NCBI GenBank assembly: GCA_026770705.1
Contig: JANJGN010000035.1
Location: forward strand, 13,392,001-13,456,000
Length of the DNA stretch: 64,000 nt
Origin: Isurus oxyrinchus
Taxonomy: Eukaryota
Reading direction: 5' to 3'
Below the pieces are notes generated by a model, which saw nothing but the letters and a program-made list of their open reading frames with translations, was not told the origin of the DNA and ran no database searches. Positions 14,421-64,000 of the stretch are shown here, in pieces; position 1 is the first letter of the stretch; each line of letters begins with the position of its first letter. A program made the position numbers and the translations under genes.

Positions 14421-14984
14421 TATTTCTTTTTTTTCAATGGATTTGTGTTTCTATCCCGGGTATTGTGCTTCAAGGCTGTTGAGAATTCATCCGCATGTTT
14501 GTTGCTGATCTCTTGTCTAGTAACTCAGGTGTGTGAAACTATTTGTATCATTTCTGGTTCTGTTTTGTAATGATTGGGAACACACACAGTCTTAATTCTT
14601 AAAGCACTGGTCAGTCAATTTGCATTTAAATCATTGTCAAATTCGAACAATATCACTGCAATGTGTCCAAACAGAATAACCCAAAATATTCACAGTGAAA
14701 CTTTTTTATTTAATACAATATGCTGTGTAACAGAATGCATTAATAATATTTAGTTGTAATTCTTATTCCAGCAAATGGAATTTAACTTAAGGGAAGAGAT
14801 TTTCATGAGGATCTGATGGAATGTAAATTTAAATACACCACGGGGAACATTAACTTTGCTGATGGTTGAACTGAAATGTACTTTCACAACAAAGGGGCTT
14901 GAGATTATTGGACGAATGTCAAACGGAAAACTGAAGGTCACAAAGCAAATGAGATGCTGATCGATCGGAGGGCATTTTTAAAAA

Positions 14985-15260
14985 AACTCGTTCATGGAAT
15001 GTGGGCTCGGCCAGCATTTATTGTCCATCCTTAATTGCCCTTGTTCAAAGGGCATTTACGAGTCAACCATTGCTGTCGTTCTGTTGTCACATGTAGGCCT
15101 GAAGGGGTAAAGAGATGGATTCACGAACAGATTCTTGGTCATCAGCACTCGATTGGCTCCAGTGTTTTGTTATTTCGCTTCATTTCCACTATTCGCTGTT
15201 GCAGGACTGGATCACATTTCATTAACCCTGGGATTCTAGACGTCTTTTACCACATCCCCT
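14985..15260 (-). mobile_element. Shark SINE, internally deleted
   Basis: gccagcatttattgtccatccttaattgcccttgttcaaagggcattt...gtcacatgtaggcc. Confidence 0.7.
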
Positions 15261-16581
15261 CAATATTTCTGAAGACCAGAATTTTGGGAATAATGCTTGA
15301 TTCAGTGGCAGGAAAGCATCACGTTTAAATTTTCAATGAAATGTAAAAAAATCAGGACCACAAATTGTGGATTTGTCGGTATCTCGCTTAGAACGTCACA
15401 AGCTTCAATTCTGAGCTATATTATCAGATAGTGCGTGGTTCGTTTACATTTAAGTGAAAAGTTAGCTTGTTATCGGCTGTGAAGGTGCCTTTTTATTCCG
15501 GAAGGGGACGTGTCACATCTTCATGTGAATGTTCGACACTGCACTGGTCACAGCAAGGGTGCGTCATCAGCCCCTCAATTAGTCTACAACGCAGTGGAAG
15601 CGAAGGTCCAGCGAGAGGGATGATCCCATAACCATCACCAACAAAAAGAGAAACAAAGTCAGAACTCACATGTAAACACGTAAGTTACAGACTCGTGCCT
15701 TACTGCAATATTCTTCCTACAGTCACAATTTCAACAGATAATATTTTATATTAAGGATACTATATGGAAATTCTCCTGGACGATGTGTGGAGAGGTATCA
15801 ATAATTGCCCGCTTAAATTGACTTTCCATGTCCATTCCAAGCCAACTCACATGTATAATTCTTACATGATCGAAATACTTGCGAAACGTAAACTTCTCTT
15901 CACAGCTTGTTGAGCTTTCTCTGTATTCTCTCACAGGATACTCAGAGTGCGGATGCCAGGACTTTATATTTTAAAACAGAAATTGTGGCCATGTCAGGTT
16001 ATCTTATGGAAGAAGCAGTTATGCCTCTGGGAAAAGGTACTCTAATAAGGCCGCCTGTAATGGGAGATTGTTTGGGCGATAAGCGTTATGAGAGGAGAGC
16101 TTTCTTGTGCATTTATGATATTGAAACGATGATTACTTTATCAAAGTTTTAAAAGTTACAAGCAATCAGGACAGAAAGCATGTTTTGGGAGAGCCTATTC
16201 TTTTTGAAACCCTCTTACCTGTATTCAGCACCCAGGCGGCTTTACAGCAGTTAACCACAGCTTGGGATTGTTGTGCCTACTTGCTGGAACAGGAAATCCT
16301 TCCTCGTACACAAAACGCATTCTACACATTTACATTGTTGTTTCTCGTTGTAGTGTGATTGTTTTATAACACTACAGAAGTTTATTCCGGTAACGATTGT
16401 TGCATCATTTGCAAAAGGAAATCCTTCAGCTTATTACTCGATTTATTACGTTAGGGAAGCCGATGTGAGGGAAGCATTTATGAAATAAATTAAGGGAGCA
16501 AAGTCACCTGCTTGGAAATCTGTATGTGCTCGACGAACCATAGGAGCTTGCCTGGCCAGATTATTTCCAAAAACCTACTGG

Positions 16582-16589
16582 TATAAAAG
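16582..16589 (+). promoter_or_regulatory. Candidate TATA box of the MS4A-like gene
   Basis: tataaaag lies ~1 kb upstream of the coding ATG. A possible short non-coding exon ends at gag|gtatc (~16633), and there is an acceptor tttttttattag at 17533. Confidence 0.3.
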
Positions 16590-17561
16590 CAGTTAGCAGG
16601 CTAGAGATTTAGGACAATGCCAAATCCAGTGAGGTATCAAACGAAATTAGATGTCAAGACTGCGTTAGTGCAATTATTTGCTTTTTTTCTACAATGGGCA
16701 GTGCAAAGTCAAATTGACGAACTATACTCCTTAAGGGTGTATTATTATGGTTACTTTTGCCATCATCATTATTATACAGGGAAGGAAACTTTAACTGATT
16801 GTTATAATTTCAGTTAACAACACAGATTTAGGAGAATGATTTATCAAGCATATCTTCCAACAAAATTAGCCTTCAAGATTCCATCAGTGCAACCATCGGC
16901 GTTTTATTCTCGACAATGGACAGCACCACTTCAAATTGCGTAGCGACACACCTTAAAATTAAATTATTACATTACTATTGCCAACATCAATATTAAACAA
17001 ATAATTCAAATTCCTGTGGAACGTTTGCAAAGGGCTGCATTGATACAGTAAATTGGTTGCCGTGGAAACTCCAGTTCTCTTGACAATTGCTGCAAAATTC
17101 TAAGTGGACAGAGTAAATTCTTGCAATTTCCGGAGGCATGTCAGACAACTGAAACAAAAAATAATTTCGGAAATGAATGATTAAAAATTAAGCTATCGAT
17201 TGACACCAAGTCGATTCTTCTGACTGGAAAAGGAAGTTTCCTTTGAAGGTATCGTGTCTTGGGTTCTTTTGAACTGAACTATCAAAACTTTCAACACGTG
17301 ATTCGTGAAAAATGATTGAAAGCAACAGAACATTAACCGAACGAACTACATGTCGGATTCACAGCACTCGAGCCTGGTTAATTGGTAAAAAATGTGTTTA
17401 TTCATTCAGCGCCATATTGTTAATAATCCCAAAAAAATCGGTTAGCAACCTTTGCTTTAAAGGGGCTTATTGTTCGATCGGTATTAAGCGAAACGTTGGC
17501 AAGCTAAACTCTGAAGAACTATTTTTTTATTAGGGTTTATCATTGATCCATGATTTGAAAC

Positions 17562-17726
17562 ATGGCTGAATCAAAAAGCACTGCATCCGGACGCCCCATT
17601 CACGATGTACACAGCCAATACAAAACAGCAGAATACCCGGTAATGAACCGAGGCTCCCAGATTCTATCATTAGCCGTTCAGGAAAGCAGACGCGGGATTA
17701 AGCTGCCTCGAACGAAAACTCTCTGT
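17562..17726 (+). CDS. MS4A: MS4A-like coding exon 1 (cytoplasmic N-terminus, 55 aa)
   Basis: Kozak context aacATGG. Translates MAESKSTASG...EYPVMN...KLPRTKTLC, then donor gtaaga. The end matches the MS4A K.LG| junction. Confidence 0.7.
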
Positions 17727-17944
17727 GTAAGATAACACTTTGATTTTAATTCTAAATGTAATCACATTTGGCTGGGTTAAAATATTAATAGATAATGTTA
17801 CACAATATTCATTGAATTAAATGGCGCCGTCGGTTATCTATAACAGTATCATGAAATAGATAGTAACATTAGATCGATTAGATCTACACAATAATATCAC
17901 ATGTATAATTTCATTAGGGATTCAAGTCGACAATTATATGATTA

Positions 17945-18330
17945 TATTTCGGGACGTCGGCTGACAAGCTGTGTATTTAATGTTCATTTAAAGTTTCCCC
18001 TTTGAAAACACTGAGCTGGGCTTCTGTCTCGATCCGTCACAGGGTCTGTAGCGATGATGCTCCCAAAATATTAGCGTGGATGGCGTGGAGAAGTTTGAGC
18101 CAGCGAGGGTGGGGAAAAACATAATTTATTTGCAAGTAACGGTGTTGTGTGATTGAAATAGGCTCTTGGCTATGGTCACCCACCCACAGACAGGCTGGCC
18201 TTGACCTTTTCGGAGGTACTAGTTGCTGCTATGCTAGTTGCTGTCCACAATCTATGGATAGCTTCCCAGAGTGAATCCTGCAGACAGAGCTCATTACGAT
18301 CTCCAATCCACCCGTGGAGAAGGAAATTTT
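17945..18330 (-). mobile_element. Highly eroded LINE 3' end in MS4A intron
   Basis: gggacgtcggctgacaagc...tgtattt resembles the antisense tail of the SINE-partner LINE. Confidence 0.45.
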
Positions 18331-18369
18331 ATTTGACCTGATCCCGACTCTATGTGTTAATGCCCTACC

Positions 18370-19250
18370 TCAGGGTATTTTATGAAATGTTTTCCCCGAT
18401 CCCCCATCTTCGTCCTCTTCCAATTCCTGCCCCTGTTTCTATCTCCTCTCCCCATCCCTTTCCATTCTCCCTTTCACTCTCAATCCCTTTATTTCTCTCT
18501 GGCACTCCTCTCCATCCTCCATCCATCTCCCTCTCTCTTTGTTAATCAATTAATTCAGGATGTTTATGCAAGTTGATCCCTAAACAATCATCATTTCTTT
18601 TTCCATCTTCCTGCACTTCTTCTTATTTTTTTCTGCCCTCTCCCCATCTACCTTCTCGCTCTCTCCCCTTCTAAGCAACCACCCCCTCCCTTCCCACCCC
18701 AATCTCTGTCCTGCTCTCTCTTTCTCTCTATCTATCACATCTCCAACGCAACACTGTTACTCGCTGTCGCTCCCTCCTCATCTCTATGTCTCCAAACTCT
18801 ACTCTATATCTCCCACAGAGCGCCACCTCCCTCTCTTTCTATCTGTCTCTTCTCCCCACACACATGCCTTCCCCTTGTGTCTCTGACTCCCTCCCTCTAT
18901 CTCTGTCCGTATGCCTCCCACCCATGTCCAGATCCAGCACTCCGTCTTTTTCTCCCACACCTCCCTTTTGTTATTTCTCTCTTTCCCTCTCCTTCTATCT
19001 TTCTCTATCCCAATCTCACCCACACATAGTCACCTCTCTCTCTTGCTGTCAGTTTCTCTCTCTCTCTCTCTCTCTCTCTGTCTCCCTCCTTCTCCATCTC
19101 TCTCTCCTTCTGATGCTACCCCTTATCATACTCTCCCTCTCTTTCCATCCTTATCACTGCCAACGCCGCCCATTCCCGCTCTCCTTATCTCTCTCTCTCG
19201 CTCTTTGCTTGCCCCCTCTCTTCCTCTCTCTCTCTCTTATTCGCCGTTAT
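18370..19250 (+). repeat. CT-rich polypyrimidine tract / (CT)n microsatellite in MS4A intron
   Basis: Seen directly, including a (ct)n run near 19055-19079. Confidence 0.9.
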
Positions 19251-19310
19251 GTTTTCTTAGATTTGATGTGTTTTATCTGTGTGCACACTGTCGTACTTGC
19301 TATCTTTTAG

Positions 19311-19436
19311 GTTATTCAGGTTGCCTTGGGAGTCCTGTTTATTATCTACCGGATTATTCTCTACTGGACAGCAATAGCTCCGAGCCCAGCGCCCTTATCA
19401 AGAATATATAGAACACACTGGCTGAGCGGTCTGTCG
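19311..19436 (+). CDS. MS4A: MS4A-like exon 2 (TM1 and start of TM2, 42 aa)
   Basis: Acceptor ctatcttttag. Translates VIQVALGVLFIIYRIILYWTAIAPSPAPLSRIYRTHWLSGLS. Donor gtaagt; 126 nt, phase 0-0. Confidence 0.85.
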
Positions 19437-20414
19437 GTAAGTTTCAGGTCTAGGTCTGGAGCAGTCAATGTGAGAATGAATGGGACGGCTCGATTTGAGC
19501 AGATTAGTATGGGGAATAGCGTCCGTGCTTTCATGTAGCACAGCATAACCGACTGTTTCTCAATGTCAACCTTCCAGAAATTAACGCCAATCTTTCGCTT
19601 GCATTTCTAGGATGTTGATAATTCCCATAGCTACTTAGAAGCACATGGAAACCTGTACCACTCGGTCAAATTATAATAATAACGGCTATATTCTTCTCCC
19701 TCGGAGCAGAAATTGTCATCTCCCACAAAACAGCAAAGAAATTTATATACAAACCGGATTTTCAGATGTGACAGCACCTTTCTGTATTTCAGCCGCTGTC
19801 TGCTTCAGTATTAAATATAACTCCCTTTTTTTTTACATCCGCAAGCTCTGAAACTGTGCTTCGGACGTGTCACGTCCAGATCCTTTCTGTAATTCTCAGA
19901 GCAGAACCTCTATCTCCCAAACACATTTCAGTGATTTCCTTGCATGGAATCCCGCTATCCGCCACGTTGTCACGGGCTTCCAATTGACTGGCAATGGTCT
20001 TTTGCATCGATTTAGAGCTGGGACAAATGTCCCCTCAGATGACAAGCAGTGAAATCCATCTTTCACAGTCTCACCCATGTGTCCATGGAGCGTGTGGCTG
20101 TGTTAATTGCGCGCAATCAGCTCAAGTTGCTTCTTGCTGCTTGCAACATTCAACTCTCGTCCACATTGCTCATTTGCGCCCGAAACTTACTGGAGTCTGA
20201 AAACTTGAATATATGGCTCCCTATCCGTCCATTGCACCCTCGACAAACACCGCGACAAGCTAACACCATTTCACAGATCAGTGAGAGATATATCAGGGCA
20301 AATAACGTGAAGAATCAAACAGGATAAATTAAAAAGGATTCATGGTTTAAGAAATGTGTTATCATTAAAACACGATCTATCAAGTGAAATGGATATTTAC
20401 ACTTTTCGTTCCAG

Positions 20415-20471
20415 TTTATGTTTTGTGGTAACTTGCGGTTCATTGTAGAAGTGGAAATGAATAGACGCCGT
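20415..20471 (+). CDS. MS4A: MS4A-like exon 3 (57 nt)
   Basis: Acceptor ttttcgttccag. Translates FMFCGNLRFIVEVEMNRRR. Donor gtgagt. Size and sequence match the short FIISGSL exon of MS4A genes. Confidence 0.85.
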
Positions 20472-20846
20472 GTGAGTATATCCTTATTGTAATTTGGTGC
20501 ATTAAAACTTTTCAGCTCCAGGAGTACTGTTTTGATGTTAAATTCTGTGACGCAGATGAAACCACAATTTGATTCCACACACACAGGCCTGGGCAGAAAT
20601 ATAAAGAGGCATCGGAGAAGTGATTCGGAGGCTGATACGGGAAATAAATTCTCGTTTCAGGATTTTTTTCCAAAGTATATAAATGGCCGCATTTTGTCAA
20701 ATTCCGTGAACACAATTAAAACTGTTTTATTTTTAAAACATGCAATGCGCATTGACCGGAATTTCTATGTCTTTCCATGTATGCACCGAATGTATGTGAA
20801 ATATCATGGACAGATATAAAAATTAATTACTGCTTACTCTCCGAAG

Positions 20847-20987
20847 CTGTGGGCATGTGTGGTGGCGAATATGACCAGCGTCATTGTTCTGGCGGTGGAT
20901 GTGTACCTGCTTCACTTTGATATCTGCATTTGGCCCGGATTAATATTATACGCTACCGGAGGCGGCCGACGTCATTGTGCTGTTTAT
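20847..20987 (+). CDS. MS4A: MS4A-like exon 4 (TM3 and second extracellular loop, 47 aa)
   Basis: Acceptor ctctccgaag. Translates LWACVVANMTSVIVLAVDVYLLHFDICIWPGLILYATGGGRRHCAVY, with two loop cysteines. Donor gtgagt. Gapless against paralog 58896-59036. Confidence 0.85.
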
Positions 20988-21665
20988 GTGAGTACAGAAT
21001 CATTTCCTCCAACGCGGCTGAATTATGCGAATCGGCAAAGTCAGCTCCAGCGCATGCTTCATTTATTTTCTTTAGACTGAAAGGGAATGGATAGTATGGA
21101 GGGGGCTTCATCCCGTATTACTGACCCAAACCAACCTCCTTCCACCTAACCACCTGAACCTGGCGATAGAAGAAAAACAATTTGCCTTTGTCTGAGACGC
21201 TTAACCTGGTGAACCATCCTCTCTTGCTCCACAAAACTATTAATAGGCAAATGTCACAACTAGATACAGATAGCGATATATGTTAGGAAGGCAAAGCATT
21301 CGAAAAATGAAATGGGTTGGAGGAGCAGCCTCGGCTGCCTGGCTGCTGAGCAGCCTAGTGCAAGTTGGTATATGGGCAGCAGTGTTTTGTTTCATTTCAA
21401 ATTTAGCAAAGAGCTAAATCAAACAGGCGGGCCAAGAGACCATTGGAATATTCAAGACTAGAGGTGCCAGGTAATGATGACAGTTTTCGCGTCCAGCTAC
21501 ATAGTTGCCGCTCAAATGCACACAGAAACCATTTAGAGAAGTTAAGCACGCCAAGGCTAAGTAACTCCTACTACAACCCATCCCTAACAACCCGCGCACC
21601 CGGAACATTTCACAGCCATTCACCAATGATAATCTCATATTTATCATTTTGGATACACCCAATAG

Positions 21666-21792
21666 GTGGGAAGGGCATTGCCCTGCGTGTCCCTGCTGAA
21701 ACCCTGACGATTTTGTAAATATGTGTTATATTCGCCACTCAGACATCTGTTTTCGAGTGGAACGGTCCCAGCGTAATCACTTCCAGGCATTA
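21666..21792 (+). pseudogene. MS4A-like exon 5 (TM4), disrupted
   Basis: Acceptor ccaatag. Translates VGRALPCVSLLKP* (TGA at 21705-21707). Donor gtaact. The 129-nt paralog reads through and contains SAFGFRV, like MS4A SAFGCK. Confidence 0.55.
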
Positions 21793-22739
21793 GTAACTAT
21801 CTTCTTCGGAATGCTCAAAACCAGCTTTGTTGAATGGCCTGTTTGAGGCCAATTCATTCGTGATGTATTTTTTTCTTTACAATGAGGGTCTATATATATG
21901 GATGATATAGGCGTGGGTGTAAATAGATCAGAGTCAGATGCCCGATGAGTAGAACGTTAACCTTGTTTGTCGCATGTCATTAGTTTATCTGCTCCCCTGT
22001 CTACACATTGTCAGATAGTGAGGCAACGCTATTAAAATGTCGCCCATATATTCAATTTCCCTTGGATGCCCATTGGATGGCAGGTGGCTCTCTCTCTCTC
22101 AAGACGTTGTTGCCCCAGGCCAATGCCCCATCTCATCTCTTTACGTTCCTCAAGTGTGACTATATTCTCTGCCCAATACTAAGGGTTAAGATTCTTTGTG
22201 AATTGTGGTCTCCCAGTGGCACGAGAAATATCGTGATCGGAAGTCGATTTCCTTATTTCTGATTTTAATTAACGTGTTCTTGGTACTGATGCCCAGGGTT
22301 ATCCTTATGAGCTTCTAGTTATCCTTTGGATCCTAGCGATGTTGGAGATATTCATAGCAATCGCTGTTTCCTTTATTGGATGGAAGGCACTGGACAGAAA
22401 TTCGAAGACTCAGGTCCATAAGGTTAGTGAGGACCTTTTAATACTTGGTGTTGATCTGAAGAGAAACAAGCGACTTGAATTTATACAACACCTTTTCTGA
22501 ACATCAGAAAGCCCCTTACACGGAGCGAAACTGTGTCCTACTTATAAGAGCATAATTATCACAAGCTGATAATTCGTGTGTGTTGGGTAAGAGCTCGGAG
22601 GTTCAGAGGGTTTTGCGTGCCCTTGTGCATGAACCAAAAGTGTTACAATTAATTTGGAAAGCAAATAAAATGTCATAATTTTTAATATTTTTTTATTACA
22701 AAAGGATGTACCTAGCATTGGTGAGCCCCCACCTGTAGT

Positions 22740-24955: not shown

Positions 24956-25098
24956 NNNNNNNNNNNNNNNNNNNNNNNNNNNNNNNNNNNNNNNNNNNNN
25001 NNNNNNNNNNNNNNNNNNNNNNNNNNNNNNNNNNNNNNNNNNNNNNNNNNNNNNNNNNNNNNNNNNNNNNNNNNNNNNNNNNNNNNNNNNNNNNNNNN
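24956..25098. other. Assembly gap (143 N)
   Basis: Run of N. Confidence 1.
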
Positions 25099-30400: not shown

Positions 30401-30473
30401 ACTGAGATAGTTTATTCGCTAGAGCTTCAGACTTTTAATCTGAAAGTGCAGGATTCAAGCACCTGTTTGGGAA
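30401..30473 (+). tRNA. tRNA-Lys(UUU) pseudogene
   Basis: Gapless 73-nt alignment to the vertebrate tRNA-Lys-TTT sequence recalled from memory (about 55/73). The anticodon arm tcagacttttaatctga is intact; the acceptor stem and D-arm are broken. Confidence 0.8.
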
Positions 30474-32839: not shown

Positions 32840-33360
32840 CCAGTATGTTAAAATGAAGAGTAGGTTGTTGGAGATATCCATGGTGTTAAAATGGTTATAC
32901 ATTGAAAAAAAATCAGAGTGTTAAAATTAGAGTTCGCCCTTTTCAAAACAAAGATGAGACTGTTTCTCGCTCTGAGGGTTGTGCAAATTTGGAACTCTGC
33001 CTGAGCAGGCGGCGGACGCGGGGATGAATGAATTTATTTATGGCGGAGGGAGATGGGTTTTTGTATAGAAGCAAAACGCTGCGGATGTTAGAAATCTGAA
33101 ACAAAAACAGAAAATGCTAACTGAAACTCAGCTGGCCAAACAAATTCTGTGCAGGGAAAAAAAGGAGTTAAAATTTCGAGTCCTTATGACTCTGCGTCAG
33201 AATAGAGACCCTTGTTCGAAGGGAATCAATGGGTACGGGAAGCTGGGAGGATAAATGTGATTGTGGAACTCAAAACACAAACAGATCAGAGCCATGAACG
33301 TCTTGAATGGGGGAGCAGGCTCGAGGGGCCGGATGCCCTACTTCTGCTCCTATTTCCTTT
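32840..33360 (+). mobile_element. CR1 3' end interrupted by a Penelope pLTR remnant (~33068-33203, minus strand)
   Basis: CR1 motifs agggttgtgcaaatttggaactc and aggctcgaggggccggatg flank gctgcggatgttagaaatctgaaacaaaaacag...ttcgagtcc. Confidence 0.7.
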
Positions 33361-34499
33361 GTCCTGAAAAATGGGAAAATCTGGGACAATCAAGCGCCAA
33401 GTCAGGATGTACTTTATCTGGCAGAAAGGCTCACTGGAAATAATCAACACGATTCTCAAAAAAAGGGTCAAACCTATGAAGATTTGGCGAATATGTGGGC
33501 TTTTTAATACATCCTGAAGGTCATTGCAATCTATTGCATTCAAACAGCAAGAATCTCAGCGTCAACCGCTTACAGTGCTCCGGTTCACACGAGTTGAATA
33601 CATGGAGCTGAACGAATCACCCAAAAACGAATCTGAAACTGTAACACTCAAATGTATATTGGAATCCTCTTGCAACCCGGCAATCTTTTAGCTCACCCAC
33701 AGAGCTTCAATGTCTGTCAAAAATATCAAACCTTCCCAATATATCACATTACATTCCCAGAACATTGCCCGCCATAGACCATTACCACGACAGGCAGACC
33801 CACTCCCGGCTTCACAGAACACTTCGTCTTGTCCCCAATCCTCGCTGTTCCACACAGCCGCGTGATATGACAACTGTTATTTCCCACGTTTCCGTTATGA
33901 GTCCCTGCAAACTTTTGAAGATAACGTTAATTAAAATACATGCATTTGCAGTAACGGCAGCTGGGACGTTACAATTTGAAAGACAATGTCCTTAGGGTCG
34001 GAAAATAACATCATCCGATTAGCCATGGGAAATGCGATGTCAGTCACCTTGAAAGCGTGCCATTGTCACTTGAGCGTATCACATCATTTTGGGGCAGTCA
34101 TTAGATTTTAGAAGAGCGAGATCTTCCTTAAAACATTGCAAGTGTTTACCGTCTTCCTCCGCGTTTTCTGAACTGCTATCGATCACTCCATCCTTGCTGC
34201 GGATTTTGCTCTAAGGTCACACGGCGACATCGTAGCTCAATATCGCCTAAAGAACCTGAATATCAGGAAGTGAACGAACGGCATTTAGGTACAGGTGCAG
34301 AAAGACAAGTTAGACCCTCATGTGTTAGGACTTCATTCGTAAAGCTTCGTAAACAGTGAAAGGATAACCGTCAGGGGACATGCCCTTACTCAAGAGGTTC
34401 AATACCGACCACACTGGGATGAATGAAAACTAAGAAGAGCCACGACGTTAGTGAATTTTGGAGTAGGAATGAAAACCAATAGGTTCTACGCATTTTTAA

Positions 34500-34830
34500 A
34501 ATTCATTTATGGGATGTGGGCTTCGCTGGCTGGGCCAGCATTTGTTGCCCCTCCCTAATTAACCCTTGGAAATGTGGTGCTTAGCTGCCTTGTTGATCGG
34601 ATGCAGTTCCTGTGGTGTAGGTACAACCACAGTGCTGTTTGGACGGGAGTTTCAGGATTTTGACCCAGCGACAGTGAGATTACGGGCACCATACTTCAGA
34701 GTCAGGGTGCTGAGTGAATTGGAGTGGAACTTCCAGGTCTTCGTGTCCCCATATATCTGCTGCCTGTCTCCTTCCAGATGACAGTGCTCATGGGTTTGTA
34801 AAGTGCTGTCGAATAAGCCTCGGTGAATTC
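34500..34830 (-). mobile_element. CR1-superfamily LINE 3' end (SINE partner family)
   Basis: gggatgtgggcttcgctggctgggccagcatttgttgccc...gggagtttcaggattttgacccagcgacagtg. Confidence 0.85.
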
Positions 34831-38089: not shown

Positions 38090-40385
38090 TCAAACCTCCT
38101 TGTCTCTATAAAATCATCCACGCCTTACCACCCACAATGCGTCTGTAGACTTACTTAGGCCCTTGCAACCTGCGCTATGTCTGTAAACACTCCCAGTCCC
38201 TATCTTTGTATAATTGTGGCTTTCCTCAAACCTCTCCCTAGCGCTGCAACCCTTCCTACCCTATAAATCCCTGAGCCACTAAAACTCTCCATCTGCCTTG
38301 AACCAAAACTCTAGCAGCTGCAAACCTCCCTACGGATTCACAATCCGTCAACTCCTCCCTATCTTTGGAAACAACTCCAGGCCCTTAAAACAGTCCTCTA
38401 GCCGTATATTCATTCATGCTCCACAATCCTTCGTACATTACAACATCCTCCAGCGACTAATATCCTCCCTATCTCTGTAACCTTCTCTAGCACGTAGAAT
38501 TTTCAACATTTCTGAATCCTTAAGAGCTGATACAACGCTCCCAATGTCTGTAACTGCTGCTCGCCCGTCAATACTCCCAGTCTATGTAACCCCCTCCATT
38601 CTCAAAATGTCCTCTATTTCTGTAAACTCCTCCAGCACCTTCAAACCTGCACTTCTCCATAATTCCCTGCTGCCCTAAAACTCTATCTCACCATCTCTCT
38701 AACCTTTTCAGCACTGACAGCTCCCTTAAACTTGTAAACTTCCCCATCCTCTACATCACCCCCTACCTCTGTAACCTCTTCTGTCCCAACAATCCTCCCT
38801 GTTGCAGTAAGTTCTCCAGCACCTTCCAACGCTCCTTATCTAATTAATAGTTTTTAGTTCCTAATAAGCTCCCTACCTTTGTTACCTGCAAAGCCGTCCA
38901 TAACACTGACTGTCTTTCAAATTCAAACATACCTTAAAACTGTCCCTATCTCTTTACGTACCATAAGCCCCTCTAACCCGAGCATTCTCTGAAAATTGAT
39001 CCACTTACCACACCACCTCTCTCTGTGACCACCTTCAGCATATTAAAACCACTATAGCACTTATCCAAACTCCTGTACAACTTTGTTTTGCTGTAACAAT
39101 CTCGTGCTCTTCAACGTTCACTATCTCTGCAAACTTCTCCAGTCATAAAACATTTCTTAATTCTGGAATCTCCTTCAGCCTCATAAACCCTCCTGATCTT
39201 TTTAACCTCCTCCAGCCGCTAAAATCCTCCCTACCTATGTAGCATTCTCCAGCCCCTGCAACCATCCCTATATCTGTAACCTCCACCAGCCCCTACAACC
39301 CCCCTATGTCACCTGCACCATCCCGTACAATGGTCCCGCTGTCTGAAAAAGCCTGTTGCCAATACAACGCTCCGTAACTCCGTATACCTAGTCCAGCAAC
39401 TACCATTCTTCCAATCTATTACATCGTCCAGCCCCCCATAACAAATTCTATCTCTGTAAAACTCTCCACACCCTGCAACCATCCCCATCTAAGGCATCCT
39501 CACTGCTCCTATAACCTGTCTTAACTCTGTCACATGTTCCAACACCTACACTCGTTCCTATCACTTTAACTTCCTACAGCCCACACAACACCTCTATCTC
39601 TGTCCCTCCTCCAGCCCCCAAATCCGTCTCCATCTCGCTAACCTCCTTTGACGCCCACAAACCTCCGAACCAATGTAACATCCAACAGTCCCATAACACT
39701 CCCCATTTGAATTACCTCCTCCGGCCCATTCAAAACTCTGTATTTCTGTAACCTCCTCCAGCACCTAATTCCCTCCCAATCTCTGTCACCTCGTTCAACT
39801 CCTACACTCCCAAAACTGCGTCACCTCCTCCAAACCCTACATTTCTCCGTATCTTTGTTATCTCCTCCAGCCACTGCTACACTACCTAAAAGTGCAGCCA
39901 ACTCCAGCACAAGCAACCCTCCCTATCTGTGCAGCATCCCCCAGCGCCTTCAACACTCCCTATCTCTGAAACTTCCTCAAGTACCATCTCCAGCTCCTAA
40001 AGGTCTCGAACTCCATAACCTCCTCCAAACCCACCTGCTGTCCATCTATCTGTAATCTCCTAGAGCCCCTAAACCCCTCTCTATCTCTCTAAAATCCTCC
40101 AGCCTCGGCACCCCTCCGTATCTGTGCAGCATCCTCCAGCTCCTAAAAACTTTCTAACAATGTAACCTCGTCCAGTGCCTGTAACGCTACCCATCTCAAT
40201 AAACATCTGCAGCCCATTCATCCACTCCATATCAGTAAGCTCCTTCAACTCTTATAACACTTCCTATCTCTGTAACCTCCTCCAGCCCCTACAGCCCTCC
40301 CTATCTCTGTAAGCTCCTCTAGACTGTACAATCCTCTATATCTCTGTAACCTCCTCCAGCCCCTACTACCTTTCCTATCTGTGTA
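38090..40385 (+). repeat. 37-bp minisatellite (about 60 degenerate units), LINE-derived
   Basis: Unit approximately ctatctctgtaacctcctccagcccctacaaccctcc. The period is 37 at 40264/40301/40338. Confidence 0.9.
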
Positions 40386-40689
40386 AACTACGTCAAACAC
40401 GTCAATCATTACACCTATGCTTTTACTGGCAGCTTTCCTAATGGAAGTTGGCTGCAACGTTTCCTATATTTCAAAAATAACTACATTTTAAAAGAAGTAA
40501 TTCAATATCAATATTTTATTTTTGGCATATTATATATCAGGAAATGCAAGTTTTTCTTATATATCTGTTGTACAATTAGTCATTCAAAACATAGATTCTC
40601 ACAAAATAAAAAACAAATGGACGTAGTACTTTTCACAATTATTTGGGCTGCACTATGTATGGTAGTAAATGTGGCAAGGTGATTTCGGG

Positions 40690-41750
40690 TTCAGGTTACT
40701 GGGCTAATAATCCAGGGTCCAGTGGTTCAGGGGTTATGTTACTGTACTAATAATCCAGGGGACAGGGGTCAAAGGTTAATGTTACTGAACTAATTATCCA
40801 GGGAAGACTCGTGTACATTTTATGTTTTTCTACTAATAACTCGTTATACAGTTGTGTAATGATTATGTTACTGGATAATAATCCAGGGTATAGGAGCATA
40901 GGGATAATTTCAATGTATTACCATTCCATGGTACAGGGCTGTTGGGTGTTATGTTAATGGACTAATAATCCACGGAACAGTAGTGTAGCTTTTATGTTAT
41001 TGGACTAATAATCCGTTGTATATTTGTCTAGGTGTGATGTTACTGGACTAGAAATCCAGGGTACAGTCCTGCCGGGATTATGTTACTGGACGAATAATCT
41101 AGGGTGCAAGAGCGTAGATATTTTGTTACTGGATTTATAATCCAGGGTAGAGGTTCGTAGCAATTATGTAACTGGACTACTAATCCAGTGTACAGGAATG
41201 TTGATGTTATGTTAATGGGCTAATAATCCAGGGTTCTGTAGTATCAGTTTTATGTTACAGGACTATCAATCCAGGATACAGAACTGCAGAGATTATGTTA
41301 CTGTACTAATAATACTGGGCACAGTGGTTTATGGGTTAGATCACTGCACTAATAATCCCGGGTACAGCTGTTTAACCGTTATGTTACTGAACTAAAAATC
41401 CAGGGTGCAGCAGTCTAGGTGTTATGTTGCTGAACTAATAATCCAGGTTACAGTAGTTAAGGGATTATTTTATAGGACTAATAATTCAGGGAACAGAAAA
41501 AATGGGATTATGTTACTGGACTAATAATCCAGAGCACAATCGTGTCACGATTATTTTTACTTGAAAAATAATCCAGGGTACAATAGTTCAGGGATTATTT
41601 TACAGCACTAATAAACCAGGAAGCGGTACTGTTGGGGAAATGTTACTGGATTAACAATCATGGGTGAACTAGTGTGGTGGTTACATTCGTGGAATTATAA
41701 TCCAGCATACATTACTGTGAGGGCCCTATTACTGGACTAATAGTCCAACT
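40690..41750 (+). repeat. 43-bp minisatellite (about 24-25 units) with internal hairpin ctgga-ctaataa-tccag
   Basis: gttact recurs at 40695, 40738, 40781 and onward, around the core tgttactggactaataatccaggg. Confidence 0.92.
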
Positions 41751-45722: not shown

Positions 45723-46501
45723 ATAATAATAAAAACAAAAAACTGCGGATGCTGGAAATCCAATTCAGAAACAGCATTATTGGAAAAACTCAGCAGGTCT
45801 GGCAGCATCGGCAGAGAAGAAAAGAGTTGACGTTTTGAGTTCTCAATACCCTTCAACAGAAGTAGGTGAATCAAAGGAAAGGGGTGAAATACAAGTTGGT
45901 TTAAGGTTGGGTGGATTGGGGTGTCTTACGCAAACTGGAGGAAAAGCACCTCATCTTCTGACTAGGCACTTTACAGCCTTCCGGACTGCATATTGAATTC
46001 AACATCTTTAGGTCTTGAACTCCCTCCTCCATCCCCACCCCCTTTCTGTTTCTAACCCCTTTCTTTTGTTTTTTTCCAATAAATTATTTAGATTTTTCTT
46101 TTCCCACCTATTTCCATTATTTTTAAATATTTTTAAATCTTTTATGTTCCCCACACCCCCACTAGAGCTATACCTTGAGTGCCCTAAAATCCATTCTTAA
46201 TTAGCACATTCGTTTAGGTAATATCACCAACTTCAATACCTTTGTGCTCTTTTGTTCTTTTGTCTATGACATCTTTTGATGATCTGCTGCTATCACTGCT
46301 TGCTTGTCCCTACAACCACACCACCCCCCCTTCACTTCTCCACACTCCCCCCACCTTAAACCAGCTTATATTTCACCCCTTTCCTTGGATTCACCACTTC
46401 TGTTGAAGGGTCATGATGACTCGAAATGTCAACTCTTTTCTTCTCCGCCGATGCTGCCAGACCTGCTAGGTTTTTCCAGGTAATTCTGTTTTTGTTTTTT
46501 T
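45723..46501 (+). mobile_element. Young 5'-truncated Penelope-like element with inverted terminal copy and 14-bp TSD
   Basis: RKLEEKHLIF*LGTLQPSGLHIEFN is the GIY-YIG C-terminus. 45730-45910 is an inverted copy of 46345-46500. TSD atcatgcgatgact (45709-45722) / atcatgcaatgact (46502-46515). The paralog near 2300 is an empty site. Confidence 0.9.
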
Positions 46502-58235: not shown

Positions 58236-59868
58236 GTTATCTTTTGTGGAAGCCTCTTTTACTTTCTAGGCTCGCAGCCAAATTCACTTCTTCTGAGTAT
58301 ATCCATATTGGAATTCGTTGAAACAAAAAATTTCAATTGCAGGAGACCTGTTTTAACATTAAATTCTGTACCAGCCGATTTAGCGTGAATTGACAAGTAG
58401 CCTTGATGACACAATGTTCGCTGAGAAGGTACCTCTGGTGATGGGGTTGACCCTGTACTGTGTTATCGTTGAAGGTAAATGATAGTGAACTGGAAAACCC
58501 GTTTAACACTTCTCCAATTTCATTTCAATAAAGGAACACAGTCAAGAGCACGGGTGCAGGTTAAATATAGATGGAAACACAATTCAATTCTCCGCACACA
58601 GTTATGGGCAGGATCATATAGAGGCATCAGGGAACGTGAACAAAGGCTGACAGGGGAAATTATTTTCCGATTCAAGATTTATGACCAAGTATATACACGG
58701 CCAAAGTTTGTCCAATGCCTTGCATACAAATTAGACTGCTCCTGTAGAAGAAAATGATTGCAAATTGCATTGAGTGAAATTTTGTATGTCTTTGGCTGGG
58801 TGCCCTGAATGTATTATCGTCCAAGGATCCATTGGCTTTGTGTGAAATATCACAATGGACTGATATCAAAATCAATTACTGCATTCTCTCCGAAGCTGTG
58901 GTCCTATCTGGTGGCGAATTTGACCAGTGTCTTTGTGTTGGCAGTGGATGTGTTCCTGTTTCATTTCGATGTTAGCACTTAGCCCTGGCCAAGATTATGT
59001 GCTTCCAGAAGCGTCGGAGGTCACGGTACAGTGCCTGTGAGTACAGAAAAAATCTTTGTTTAGTGCCGATTTATGCAAAGCCGAAAAGGCAGCTCCAGCA
59101 CCTGTTCACTTTATAGAATTGTTGAGAATGGACTATACAGAAGGGGCTTGCTCCCGTGTTACTGTCCCACACCAAACTTCTTCCACCTATCCAACTAAAT
59201 CTAGTGATCGAACAAAAAATATTTGCTTTTGCCTGAGACTCTTAACCTCGTGAAACAGCCTCTGCTGCTTCGGAGGAGCGTTACCATCCAAAACTCACAC
59301 ATAGACATAGGGGGTTATAGAACATTAGGAAGCAAAACCGTGTCAAAAATAGGTTGGAGGAGCACGTTAGGGTGCGTGGCTGCTGAGCAGACTGGTGCAA
59401 GATTGCATTTTGGTAGCAGTGTTTTTTTTACTTCAAATTTAGAGAAGAGTGAAATGTGGCAAGGAGTGGGGTGGGGGGCCGTGTGGGGGTGTGGTGGTGG
59501 GGTGGAGGGAGCATGGGAATAGTCGAGACTCTGGAAGCCATGTACTGATGAGACTATTCCCTTCCAGCGACCTAATTGTCACTCAAATGCCTAAAGAAAT
59601 AAATTGGACATGCTAAGTACACCAAGGCGAAAGAGCCAGCACCGTGACAATGCTTGCTTCCCCCCTCCTACCCCCGGGATATTATACAGCCTTTTGCTTG
59701 CGGCAACCGCATATCTATCGTTTTCGATTCACCCAATAAGTGGGAAATGCATTACCCTGCGTCTACCTGCTGAAATCTCTACTTATCTCTAAACATCTCT
59801 CTCAGATTCACTGCTCAGCCTTCGGTTTTCGAGTGGAAATGCCAACGACTTGTCACCTGTGTGCATTG
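58236..59868 (+). pseudogene. MS4A: MS4A-like pseudogene, copy B (exons 3-5 only)
   Basis: Exon 3 at 58236-58292 reads IFCGSLFYFLGSQPNSLL, with the donor mutated to ctgagt. Exon 4 at 58896-59036 has TAG at 58980-58982. Exon 5 at 59740-59868 has its acceptor mutated to aa. Confidence 0.8.
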
Positions 59869-62800
59869 TCAAATCGCTTTTCCAGAATCCTCAAAAGCAG
59901 CTTGGTTGATCTACCTGTTGGAGTCCAATTCTTTTGTGATTTTTTTTTCCACGAAGGGGACTGTATATATGGATGATATTGGCGTGGGTGTAAATAGATC
60001 GGAGTCAGGCGCCTGATGGTTTGAAACTTATCTGTTATATGACTTTTAATTTGTACACTATTCTGTGCACTCATTGCCAATGCAACCATCACATATCTCA
60101 CCATCTGAGATAGTGAGACAACATGAATAAAACGACGCCCAAATATTTAACTTTACATGGAAGTCCATTCGATGGTAAATGGCGGAAGCTGTCTTCCAAT
60201 AGTGTTGCCCCAGATCAATGCCTAGTCCCATCGGTTTACTTTCCCTAAGTGTGACTATATTCCCTGCCCAATAATTTGGGCTAAGCTTCTTTATGAATTA
60301 TGCTGTCACAGTGGGCACGAAACTCCTCGTGGCCAGAATTATTTTTGTTTATTTCCAATTGTCCTTAACATGTTCTTGCCACTGATGAACAGGGGTGTCC
60401 TTTTAAGTTCCTAGTCGCCTTCTGGTTCCTAGTGTTGTTGGAGATATCCATATGAATCAGTTTTCTTTTGTGCCTAGGAGACGCTGGGCACCTATTCGAA
60501 GATGAATATTCATAAGTTAAGTGATGCACAGGACCAGATAATGCTAGGTGTTGATTGGAATAGAAACAAGCGACTTGAATCTCTGCAACAACTTTTCTGA
60601 ACATTCGAAAGCGTCTTAAAGGAGAAAAAGAGTATCCTATCAATAGGAATGTGAGTATGGCGAGCTGATATTTCGTGGGTGTTGTTCAAGAGCTCTGAAA
60701 TTCAGATGGATCTGGGAGTCACAGTGCAAGAATCACAAAAGTCTAGCGTGCAGACTCAGCAAGAGATTAGGAAAAATAATGTAATATTATAATTTATTGA
60801 GAGGGAAATTTAATACAAAAGTAGGGAGATTATGCTTCACTTGTACAGGGCACTTCTGAGAACACATCTGGAGTTTTGAGTACAGTACTGTTACCCTTAG
60901 TTAAGGAAGATATAAAATAATTAGAATCAGTTCAGAGAACATTTACAGGACTAACACCAGGAATGGATGGGTTACCTTACGACGAAATGTTCGACAGATT
61001 AGTCTAATATCCAATGGAATGTAGGACAGAAAGAGATAACTATATTGAAACATATGTCAGCCTGAGGGATGTTGATAGGTTGTATGTGGAGATGATGTTT
61101 CCTCTTGTGGGAGAATCTAGATCTAGTGGTCATTGTTTAAAATAAAGGGGTGGTTCCTTTGACACAGAGCTGTGGGGAATTACTTTCCCTCAGGCAGTGG
61201 TGAGACTTTGGAATCCCTTCCTGAAAAGGTAGTGGACACACATTATTTCAATATTTTTAAGGCAGAGTAGATATATACTTGATTAACAAGTGTGTAAAAT
61301 GTTGTCGGGGATCGGCAGGAATGTGGGACTGAGGTAACTTTCATATCAGCCAACGTCTTTTTGAATGCAGGAGTACGTTAGACGGGTTGGCTGGCCGACT
61401 CCTGTTCCTTGTCCATATGTTCATATGGTCAAACATACAAAAACAATAAATAAAGTGTTAACTTGTTACAGAATGGCCGCTGTGATATGAAGCTGTGGGT
61501 GGAGGTGAAAAATGAATGCTTTTCGGATGCTAGCGTATTCTCAAGGGTCACTTTTGGATCAATTACTCTCTCTTAACTTCAGTAAACGAACTAGGGTATG
61601 GTGCAAGAAGCAACATGATAAATATTGCGTTCGGAACACAAGTTGGCATTTTAGTATGAATTGGTGAGTGGGGTTGTTGACTCCAGATGGCATAGGGAGA
61701 ATAGCGAAATGGGCAGGAAATTAATAGATGGAGCTGGATGCTGTCATTTATAACGTTTGAAAAGGAGAATATGGCAGTACAAATTTCAAATTACATTCTG
61801 AAATATGAAGGTGATAAGGGCGGTCTTTCCATTCACACAGACCCATCATAACTTTTTCTATTTGTTCATGGGATGTGGTCGTCGCTGGCTTGGTGTCAGT
61901 GTTTGTTTCCACATTCTTGGTCAGAGGGTATTTCAGAGACAACCGCATGTATTCCAGACCAGGTAAGGACGGCATATTTCAATACCTAAAGAGCATTAGT
62001 GAATCATACAGGTCTTCAAAGCAATCGCCAATTGTTGCGCCATTCTCATCAGCAGGATTATAATTCCTGAGTTTTATTGAATTCGAATTTCACCATCTGT
62101 CGTGTGGTATCCGGGTACACAGATAATTACCCTGGCTTTTTGGAATAATAGTCAGTGACAATGTCACTATGCCAACGCCTCTAAATGGAGTTATACTGTC
62201 TGAAATAAGCTGAATGTGCACCAACTTTATAAATCGCTGGTTGAGTCAGCTGGAGGGTTTGCGGACAATTCGTCACATGATATTCTCCGAAAATTTAATG
62301 GCTTTAAAAGCGGTACAGGTGAAGTGTCTAGGCTTGTTACACGCGAAATGGATCTCAGCTGTAAGGAGAGGTTAATTTATAGCGAAGTCGCTCCTAATGG
62401 GCAGAAAAATGTATTGTAAGTGACTTACTAAATCTTTTGAAGTTGCTGGGAGTATTTGATCTAAGAGACAAGGAACAGCAGCTCCCTCTAGCGACTGGGT
62501 GGACTGCCAAGCGCCAGAGAATTAACATAATTGCAAGTAGCTTCAGAGGAAATAAAGCTCATTAATTTCTCACACATTGTCTGAATGTGGCAAGTTCTAC
62601 CTGAATAGGAAAAAAAGTGTGTCTGGAAATGGCTTACAGAAATATTTTTTAGCGGTAATCGGACAGCTCGTTGAGAAACAAAAATTGACTGACTTCCGAA
62701 GTTAAAGGTTGGGGGGCAGATGTGGGACAAAGCATCACTCTGATCCTTCAACAGAAAAGCAGGTGGAGGATGGGCTGTCGAGCTAGGAACCAGACCCGCA

Positions 62801-63549
62801 CGGATAGCAGCAGGTAGAGGATTATAGAGTACTTGTCGGGCAAATACAAGGCTGAAAGTGATTAGGCCACAGCACCATTTGTTCATGAGACATTTGGTAG
62901 CCAGTGTTATTTGTGGGGAGAGGAAGTGGCTGCCCGGGACAACAAGATTTCCGCCCAAATTCCAGGTCCGGTCTGCTCGTTTTCAGGCTAGGCAGGTGAT
63001 ATAACTGTTACTGTTCAAATTACGTCCCGTTTATTGCAGCTGTTAATAAAATTACCGCTTTGTCAGCATCAATGTTAGTTTAAATGACTTAACTAGGGTG
63101 CGTAAAGTTTACATCTGGGCTCGGGATTCTGCATAGTCTTCACTAGTTTATTGAATTATGTTTATTTTATGACTCAGGTCGAGAAAGTTGCCAGCAACCT
63201 AGGTTTATTGCAATATTTGGGAAAATGGTGTTCACTTCTCTAAGAGAATGTCACATGTAGCTAGATCCACACATATAATATCATAGGCACATACAGACAT
63301 ATATAAATAATCGTTAAATTAATAATTTTTTTCAGAAATTCTTTTAATTCTCAAAATAAATCACTACTAGTTGAATGACTTCCATTGTTTGCAACTAGGA
63401 TGTAACGATGACCAGAAGGACCTAGAAATAGCTATGCATAGATCCTAGAAGGAAGCAGCACAGGTGCATTAGGCAGTTTTGACGGCATATGAGATACTTG
63501 CATTTTTTAGACGTGGCATAGATTATAAGAGCAGAAAAGTTAAGTTGGA

Positions 63550-63683
63550 AACAAAAACAGAATTACCTGGAAAAACTCAGCAGGTCTGGCAGCATCAGCG
63601 GAGAAGAAAAGAGTTGACGTTTCGAGTCTTCATGTTTTTGTTTTTGTTTTGGATTTCCAGCATCCGCAGTGCTCTTTGTTTTT
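63550..63683. mobile_element. 134-bp Penelope-derived insertion with perfect 13-bp TSD, inside a CR1
   Basis: TSD aagttaagttgga at 63537-63549 and 63684-63696. An antisense pLTR piece is joined to a sense tail. Absent from the paralog near 25340. Confidence 0.88.
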
Positions 63684-64000
63684 AAGTTAAGTTGGAGTTG
63701 TTTGGAAAGCTAATTTGGCCATATCTAGTGTACTGTCTGCAGATCTTAACGCCACAGTATATGAAAGGTCTGAGTACACTCTCCATTGTGCAGAGGAGAT
63801 TCACCGGGATGATGTCTGGGCTGGAGTATTTCAGCTATGAATTGGGACTGGTCAGGCTGAGTTGGAATACATTAGAGCAGACAAGGCTGAGAGGGGACCT
63901 GAAAACGATCATCAAACTTATGAGGGGCATATGTAGTGCAGTTGAAGAAAAGCTTTTCCCCTTAGCGGAGGAGTTAATAACCATCAGCATCGATTTAAGG

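Follow-up and report, generated by a model that had tools for sequence, protein, structure and literature searches.

Known MS4A genes are composed of phase-0 exons, among them a 57-nt exon for the second transmembrane helix (TM2). According to a review of the family, MS4A proteins are 200-300 aa long, carry two cysteines in the second extracellular loop and typically show the motifs LGAXQI in TM1 and GYPFWG and FIISGSLS in TM2. CD20 has its coding sequence spread over six exons. The family is thought to have arisen in cartilaginous fish, where the shark members described in the literature consulted are three dogfish ESTs only, and the three dogfish MS4As studied were judged unlikely to be blood-cell genes (PMC2826416). 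Orthologues of the human MS4A genes have been reported in mammals only, and the term CD20-like, when applied to the gene described here, is therefore valid at the family level only.

In a stretch of 64,000 nucleotides from the shark Isurus oxyrinchus (hereafter the window) we find what is probably an intact, fast-evolving gene of this family. It has five coding exons on the plus strand, all open and in phase 0, with roughly one membrane helix per exon. The layout would be that of a four-pass membrane protein with both termini in the cytoplasm. Exon 1 (17562-17726; 165 nt, 55 aa) begins with ATG and encodes the predicted cytoplasmic N-terminus; it contains YxxM at Y25, which we take to be a PI3K-type docking motif, and closes with KTL, as MS4As do ahead of TM1. 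Exon 2 (19311-19436; 126 nt, 42 aa) covers TM1, the first extracellular loop and the start of TM2, and exon 3 (20415-20471; 57 nt) the remainder of TM2 and the intracellular loop. Exon 4 (20847-20987; 141 nt) encodes TM3 and, at its end, the second extracellular loop, in which Cys143 and Cys160 lie. All three acceptors close with AG; the donors of exons 1 to 4 read, in order, GTAAGA, GTAAGT, GTGAGT and GTGAGT.

An initial annotation of the locus had proposed these four exons as a gene spanning 17562-21792. Their coordinates and lengths, the open phase-0 frames, the GT-AG sites, the spliced length of 163 aa and the two-cysteine loop are confirmed. The short exon, described there as FIISGSL, in fact reads FMFCGNL, of which F1, G5 and L7, with E12 further on, match MS4As. 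Two of the three hydrophobic segments claimed are strong (KD peaks 2.5 and 2.1), and the segment across exons 2 and 3 peaks at about 0.9. The annotation also missed a fifth exon beyond its end (22297-22422, plus strand), which was expected first from the family layout and found afterwards. Exon 5 is open in phase 0, encodes TM4 and the start of the C-terminal tail, has the donor GTTAGT at 22423 and carries the LE motif of MS4A TM4 (Glu180). Its best 19-mer (KD 2.93) ranks top among the 42 hydrophobic acceptor-anchored plus-strand frames listed. A 16-codon segment at the acceptor at 21743, within the annotated range, was considered as the last exon and dismissed because TM4 lies further downstream. 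With peaks of about 2.5, 0.9, 2.1 and 2.9 for the four helices, TM2 is weak and the other three are clear. Lysine and arginine are commoner on the predicted inner side of the membrane.

The first coding exon is overlain by a CpG-retaining region (17001-18000), probably the promoter and 5' end of the gene. Its CpG observed/expected ratio of 1.09 is the highest among 64 non-overlapping 1-kb windows (sliding-window median 0.50); it holds 37 CpG where 16.9 would be expected (Poisson p=1.6e-5, or 1.9e-4 with exon 1 removed). An acceptor at 17534, ahead of exon 1, suggests a non-coding exon upstream, and an upstream ORF of two codons begins at 17550. A promoter scan was disregarded since its model describes bacterial promoters. 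The 3' end (22423-22669, plus strand) is uncertain between read-through and splicing to a sixth exon. Read-through to the TGA at 22498-22500, with AATAAA at 22664, gives 230 aa; no sixth exon was found among 12 strong acceptors between 22.5 and 42.9 kb. The read-through length falls within the range that the review gives for MS4As, and the two loop cysteines agree with its description.

MS4A motifs anchored on splice acceptors mark exons 2-5 in the right order, and about 7e-6 such chains would be expected by chance. The motifs were taken from the published alignment but written after the peptide had been seen, so the test is not blind. It covered 3,643 plus-strand and 4,396 minus-strand AG positions (8,039). 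The TM1 motif matches once among all of them, at 19311, and the TM2 motif in one of 183 open 57-nt AG..GT segments, at 20415; neither matches in 766,284 simulated bases. The TM3 motif has five matches, including 20847 and a paralogous site at 58896, and the TM4 motif three: 22297 and 22312, which fall in one exon, and 43111.

Agreement with the family is partial at the level of individual residues. TM1 keeps the L, Q and following G of LGAXQI at family spacing, and the Gly before the exon junction has become Cys. Just one aromatic residue and one Gly are left of GYPFWG in TM2, and three of eight positions of FIISGSLS (F, G, L), with E12 in addition. These TM2 motifs are typical and not universal, and a number of sequences aligned in Fig S1 of PMC2826416 deviate from them too. 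In TM3, both copies of the gene described below have N-x2-S and the closing Asp (N8, S11 and D25 of exon 4); the common S-x3-A-x2-G is not kept and an Asp occupies a Gly column. TM4 has the LE-x-x-hydrophobic motif.

Database searches were made with single exons. Pfam returned no CD20 match for single exons or parts of them (0/3, 0/4 and 0/7), a weak test with pieces of 20-77 aa; a YbaB match (E=0.077) is taken as chance. A sequence search of the PDB found no MS4A: exons 2 and 4 had no match, and exon 5 and a TM3 profile gave single-helix chance matches alone, among them cytokine receptor beta and CD3 gamma (E 0.28-0.94). The CD3-gamma likeness was discarded as non-significant. In the protein database, exons 4, 5 (with the read-through) and 2 yielded 4, 174 and 13 candidates, none of them scored. 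These three empty searches would be compatible with a gene missed by annotation, provided that the database includes this species' proteins. A representative library gave four weak matches to exon 5 (E 1e-4 to 6e-4) over short repeated stretches. In the ESM Atlas, the nearest named clusters listed for exon 5 are both CD20-family (0.78 and 0.77, against a lead threshold of 0.9), with PF04103 on 43% and 13% of members and the top cluster named MS4A3 (recognition 3188; 8 of the 10 best share family or clan). Exon 2 drew unrelated bacterial clusters alone (0.76). To look for further genes, the 150 longest of the window's 227 stop-to-stop frames of at least 68 aa were scanned with Pfam, and the matches, to nine frames, were all below cut-off; Rfam gave one borderline tRNA-like match and ARAGORN none. 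Literature searches, mostly of titles and abstract starts, found no publication on this gene and a single study of shark MS4As.

The empty single-exon searches, together with motifs composed after the fact, are what would be expected if chance open AG-to-GT segments had been joined by pattern-seeking. Several observations make this extremely improbable: (i) the family layout called for exon 5 before it was found; (ii) the motifs are nearly unique among the AG positions and stand in the right order; (iii) the Atlas gave CD20 without that hypothesis as input; (iv) the paralogous copy adds further family residues. The claim of a divergent MS4A is supported in part: motif order and spacing, identities counted by eye, the Atlas lead and the IFCGSL of the paralog support an MS4A family origin; single exons find no CD20 match.

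Identities were counted by eye at 105 core positions that are free of gaps in Fig S1 of PMC2826416. They amount to 29/105 with dogfish (Squalus acanthias) MS4Ax1, 27/105 with salamander MS4Ax1, which is identical at 12 of 25 TM4 positions (also by eye), and 19/105 with human CD20. With dogfish and salamander so close in these counts, they do not establish a chondrichthyan-specific lineage as the initial annotation proposed. The dogfish protein resembles ours in its N-terminus (49 aa there, 55 here), in the 19-residue stretch that corresponds to exon 3 (the matching CD20 stretch in Fig S1 has the same length), in L-x-A-C at the start of TM3, in N8/S11/D25, in the LE of TM4 and in the two loop cysteines, with HC at the second. 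It differs in having small or neutral residues where ours has R69, R105, D134 and E168, a less polar TM2 and a first outer loop 5 aa shorter. The distance between the two is much too great for them to be clear orthologues. With human CD20/MS4A1 and FceRI-beta/MS4A2 the predicted protein shares the four-pass plan, KTL before TM1 and two cysteines in the second outer loop; unlike them, its predicted tail has no ITAM and five coding exons were found. Its outer loop is shorter than that of CD20.

TMEM176A/B have a related four-pass fold, and identities to MS4As of just 18-28% raise the question of whether the gene belongs to that or another CD20-domain group and not to MS4A proper. TMEM176 rows do agree with it in the Q..G columns of TM1 and the G column of TM2. 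The assignment is nevertheless very unlikely: the TM3 N-x2-S of MS4As is missing, with its Asn, from mammalian TMEM176 rows, and the LE of TM4, present in most MS4A rows, from most TMEM176 rows, and our protein has both. The short outer loop and the 55-aa N-terminus also suit an MS4A, as does the name of the top Atlas cluster. The gene adds a divergent new member to a known family; it does not represent a novel type of gene.

At this locus an intact gene and a dead copy of it lie inside an old duplication of ~25 kb. The window also has a gap of 143 N at 24956-25098. By self-blastn, copy 1 (1-24930, plus strand) carries the intact gene and may reach left past the window; copy 2 (42945-63202, plus strand) matches it at 65-73% identity, with a mismatch of 27.0% across 14,311 non-coding columns. 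Copy 2 lacks an equivalent of about 14832-20415, and missing from it are the promoter, exons 1-2 and the exon 3 acceptor. What is left on its plus strand is an exon 3 remnant (58236-58292) with the acceptor deleted and the donor GT changed to CT, an exon 4 (58896-59036) of the same length and splice sites as in copy 1 with a stop at codon 29, and an exon 5 (60393-60516) with a stop at codon 21, a 2-nt deletion and the donor lost. The exon 3 remnant reads IFCGSL, keeps four of eight positions of FIISGSLS and retains I2, S6, P15 and L19, family residues gone from copy 1. Zebrafish, with its MS4A17 cluster, has 21 closely related copies, in contrast to the single intact gene and the single old pseudogene of these 64 kb. 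An immune or chemosensory MS4A array, of the kind that the initial annotation cites for the family, is thus not borne out within the window, and more genes may lie outside; clustering is common among MS4As without being obligatory, and birds have one gene.

The dead copy provides a measure of constraint. Had the gene evolved neutrally over the whole branch, all five exons, the ATG and the splice sites would have stayed intact in 1 of 20,000 simulations (5e-5); for decay over half of the branch the figure is 0.28% and over a quarter 0.049. Long neutrality is excluded. Neutral decay confined to the last tenth of the branch would spare the gene in 29% of cases. Across the full set of 106 codons open to comparison with the dead copy, dN/dS comes to 0.77, so that the gene may have begun to decay recently. 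By helix the ratio is 0.26 for TM3, 1.21 for TM4 and 0.96 for the TM2 part. Exons 4-5 alone give 0.70, like non-coding pseudo-codons (17.6% of null draws are as low). Non-synonymous differences per site are fewer in helices than in loops (0.22 vs 0.39; Fisher p=0.006), and the exons show a single gap over 324 nt where 6.4 would be expected (p=0.012). We considered positive selection for the loops but did not accept it: their pN of 0.39 is above the non-coding 0.27, yet their pS is 0.39 too (ratio 1.03).

These values bear on whether the MS4A gene has recently become non-functional or come under relaxed selection, its frame open but its protein no longer folding or working. The overall and TM4 ratios would agree with this, as would exon nucleotide identities between the copies (72% and 70%) equal to that of the flanks (72%), the weak TM2, the three protein-database searches without a close relative and the charged residues at columns that are small or neutral in the family: R69 in exon 2 and D134 in exon 4 (mostly Gly), R105 in exon 3 (mostly Ser) and E168. 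Against it stand the exclusion of long neutrality, the constraint on TM3, the shortage of indels in the exons, the CpG peak at the 5' end and the presence of D134 in both copies, which makes this residue older than their split. On balance we regard such decay as unlikely, and the gene, though strongly changed, as probably still working.

The same charges admit a further reading, which we consider improbable, in which the gene is a lineage-specific MS4A with a rewired membrane core, signalling together with a receptor to which it is paired by charge. R69 and R105, with D134 and E168, in place of family Gly/Ser may create a charged interface or a polar path within the membrane (by position, R69 and D134 would both lie in its outer half), and the N-terminal YxxM could join them in a receptor signalling role. 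FcR-gamma and the classical Fc receptors have been reported absent in the sharks' group (PMC4016189).

We propose, for an intact, fast-evolving MS4A gene, transcription from the CpG-rich region at ~17-18 kb and splicing to a four-pass protein of ~230 aa, with a C143-C160 disulfide predicted in the second outer loop and both ends cytoplasmic. By analogy with the family, the protein would most likely be a non-enzymatic membrane partner that forms oligomers, either with itself or with another receptor, aids the passage of that partner to the surface and tunes calcium signalling. Broad or germ-line expression would be more likely than specifically lymphoid or olfactory expression. The old tandem duplication would have been followed by loss of the promoter and exons 1-2 from copy 2, which then decayed, while in copy 1 the frame, the splice sites and TM3 would have been preserved as the loops drifted.

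The known nature of MS4As is unchanged by this gene. Its identity of ~28% to dogfish MS4Ax1 and its invisibility at the level of single exons suggest that the MS4As of early-branching vertebrates have been inventoried incompletely. Where MS4As have been reported absent, as in elephant shark and fugu, divergence may be the reason, as PMC2826416 itself allows. A concrete gene model is now at hand for asking whether early MS4As were immune, sensory or broadly expressed.

The candidate gene is probably functional and, on the features of its sequence, would be a new, unusually divergent MS4A of a known family. The four forward-strand exons proposed in the initial annotation (17562-17726, 19311-19436, 20415-20471 and 20847-20987; 165, 126, 57 and 141 nt) hold up: all are open, in phase 0 and bounded by canonical GT-AG sites, and once joined they encode 163 amino acids. 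The phase-0 layout with a 57-nt exon would match that of known MS4As. That model was incomplete, as exon 5 (22297-22422) lies beyond its end at 21792. Exon 5 begins 1.3 kb past exon 4, contains the LE motif known from helix 4 of MS4As and starts at the top-scoring position (hydropathy 2.93) among 42 candidates in a forward-strand scan of phase-0 acceptors for hydrophobic frames. The five-exon product has four predicted helices (TM1-TM4; hydropathy peaks about 2.5, 0.9, 2.1 and 2.9), with Cys 143 and Cys 160 between helices 3 and 4. Introns 1-3 (within 17727-20846) measure 1584, 978 and 375 nt, each divisible by three, so exons 1-4 share a single frame of the genomic sequence. The length of intron 4, 1309 nt, departs from this rule, and the resulting shift in frame may be why exon 5 was overlooked.

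The 3' end would take one of two forms: either exon 5 reads through to a TGA at 22498-22500, giving 230 amino acids, with an AATAAA at 22664, or it is spliced from the donor GTTAGT at 22423 into a further downstream exon. No sixth exon was found among 12 strong downstream acceptors. An assembly gap of 143 N (24956-25098) stands right at the end of the duplicated block carrying the gene and could hide a last exon. A two-codon upstream frame (17550-17558; ATG, one codon, TGA) lies in frame, ends 3 nt before the main ATG and could damp translation.

The MS4A identity first proposed is supported by four indirect lines (a motif chain, identity by eye, an ESM Atlas lead and exon 3 of a paralog), although no exon or exon part scanned singly against Pfam matched CD20. 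Short motifs taken from a published alignment (PMC2826416, Fig S1) were anchored at the 8,039 AG positions of the two strands, with a single match for TM1, five for TM3 and three for TM4; the 57-nt TM2 motif matched once among 183 open 57-nt segments. Matches at 19311, 20415, 20847 and 22297 run in the order TM1-TM4, where ~7e-6 such chains would be expected per window, a figure that overstates significance because the motifs were written after the peptide had been seen. Across 105 gap-free core positions, compared by eye with three rows of that figure, the protein shares 29 with dogfish MS4Ax1, 27 with salamander MS4Ax1 and 19 with human CD20. In the Atlas, among named clusters only, both rows shown for exon 5 are CD20-family (0.78 and 0.77), with PF04103 on 43% and 13% of members, and 8 of the 10 best matches have a common family or clan; this is a lead only, because the score is below 0.9. 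Paralog exon 3 reads IFCGSL, retaining family residues gone from the intact copy.

The fit to the family is not clean. Single exons found no relative in a protein database, and single exons or parts found no MS4A in a PDB sequence search. A representative library gave four weak matches made of short repeated stretches, and exon 2 fell into unrelated Atlas clusters. TM2 is weakly hydrophobic, the protein does not match the GYPFWG and S-x3-A-x2-G motifs described in passages of PMC11663944, and R69, R105, D134 and E168 occupy columns where Gly or Ser predominates in Fig S1 of PMC2826416. In PMC8776166 and PMC4774009 the available passages report numbers of exons and splice variants, with no exon sizes, and a literature search for an MS4A 57-nt phase-0 exon layout found no paper. 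MS4A genes in cartilaginous fish are already known (PMC2826416); no paper on this gene was found in a search that covered subscription journals poorly and excluded Tables S1-S2 of that study.

The gene lies in an old tandem duplicate, block 1 (1-24930) being 65-73% identical to block 2 (42945-63202), with 27.0% mismatch over 14,311 non-coding columns. These include 1,638 transitions and 2,222 transversions, a low ratio for vertebrate DNA, for which saturation, misalignment or an unusual local spectrum of mutations may account. The paralog in block 2 has no equivalent of about 14832-20415 (promoter, exons 1-2 and the exon 3 acceptor), its exon 3 donor has changed from GT to CT, exon 4 carries a stop, and exon 5 combines a stop with a 2-nt deletion and a lost donor; these lesions make the paralog a pseudogene. 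A Pfam scan of 150 frames, with 77 shorter ones left out, revealed no other gene in the window: 9 frames had matches, all under cut-off. Because the paralog is dead and no other gene was found, the suggested MS4A array is not seen within these 64 kb, which hold one intact gene and one pseudogene.

Long-term selection on the intact copy is well supported at the sequence level because of neutral simulations, constraint in TM3 and the helices, an indel shortage and a CpG peak. In simulations parameterised with the non-coding divergence and indel rate, five exons, ATG and splice sites stayed intact over the whole branch in 1 of 20,000 runs. Had the copy lost function recently, intactness would be less surprising: the intact fraction rises from 0.28% over half the branch to 4.9% over a quarter and 29% over the last tenth. 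Such a loss would also be compatible with dN/dS against the pseudogene of 0.77 across all 106 codons, with values of 1.21 for TM4 and 0.96 for part of TM2 (small partitions, several tested), and with exon nucleotide identity to the paralog equal to that of the flanks. Set against it are a TM3 dN/dS of 0.26 and fewer non-synonymous differences per site in helices than in loops (0.22 vs 0.39, Fisher p=0.006), both from small partitions among several tested, and one exon gap in 324 nt where 6.4 were expected (p=0.012). CpG observed/expected also reaches 1.09 over 17001-18000, the top of 64 windows (37 vs 16.9 expected, p=1.6e-5), the kind of trace that a promoter free of germ-line methylation would leave. 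A second CpG-retaining region (33001-34500, up to 0.92) has no gene found nearby.

The surroundings hold repeats that look like remnants of shark LINEs and SINEs. The one Rfam match, a borderline tRNA at 30401-30473 (29.6 bits, cut-off 29), was not called as a tRNA by ARAGORN and is possibly a tRNA-derived SINE head or a tRNA pseudogene. Between the blocks lie degenerate tandem arrays, C-rich with a 37-bp unit at 39203-40386 (2.6 and 9.2 copies, strong negative GC skew) and with a 43-bp unit at 40695-41620 (21.5 copies, 66% matches). Younger repeat copies in or beside block 2 (45766-45921, 46340-46494 and 63549-63684) are mutually 86-94% identical and have decayed far less than other repeats here.

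The DNA itself shows how the gene is built, its family signatures and its duplication history; its function is drawn by analogy with the family. The product would be a four-pass membrane protein whose termini both lie inside and whose outer loop holds a disulfide; as part of an oligomer it would assist receptor trafficking and modulate calcium entry, as described for CD20, FceRI-beta and MS4A6D (PMC11663944, PMC8776166). It is improbable that, through the added intramembrane charges and a YxxM near its N-terminus, it serves as a charge-paired partner in signalling; the group concerned is reported to be without FcR-gamma (PMC4016189). Chemoreception has been shown for mouse MS4As (PMC11026480), and a response of human CD20 was seen in HEK293 cells (PMC7776563). 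Three dogfish MS4As were found to have broad or gut expression and judged unlikely to be expressed in blood cells (PMC2826416). Because of this expression and the CpG peak, a broad or germ-line role would be at least as likely for this gene as an immune or olfactory one.
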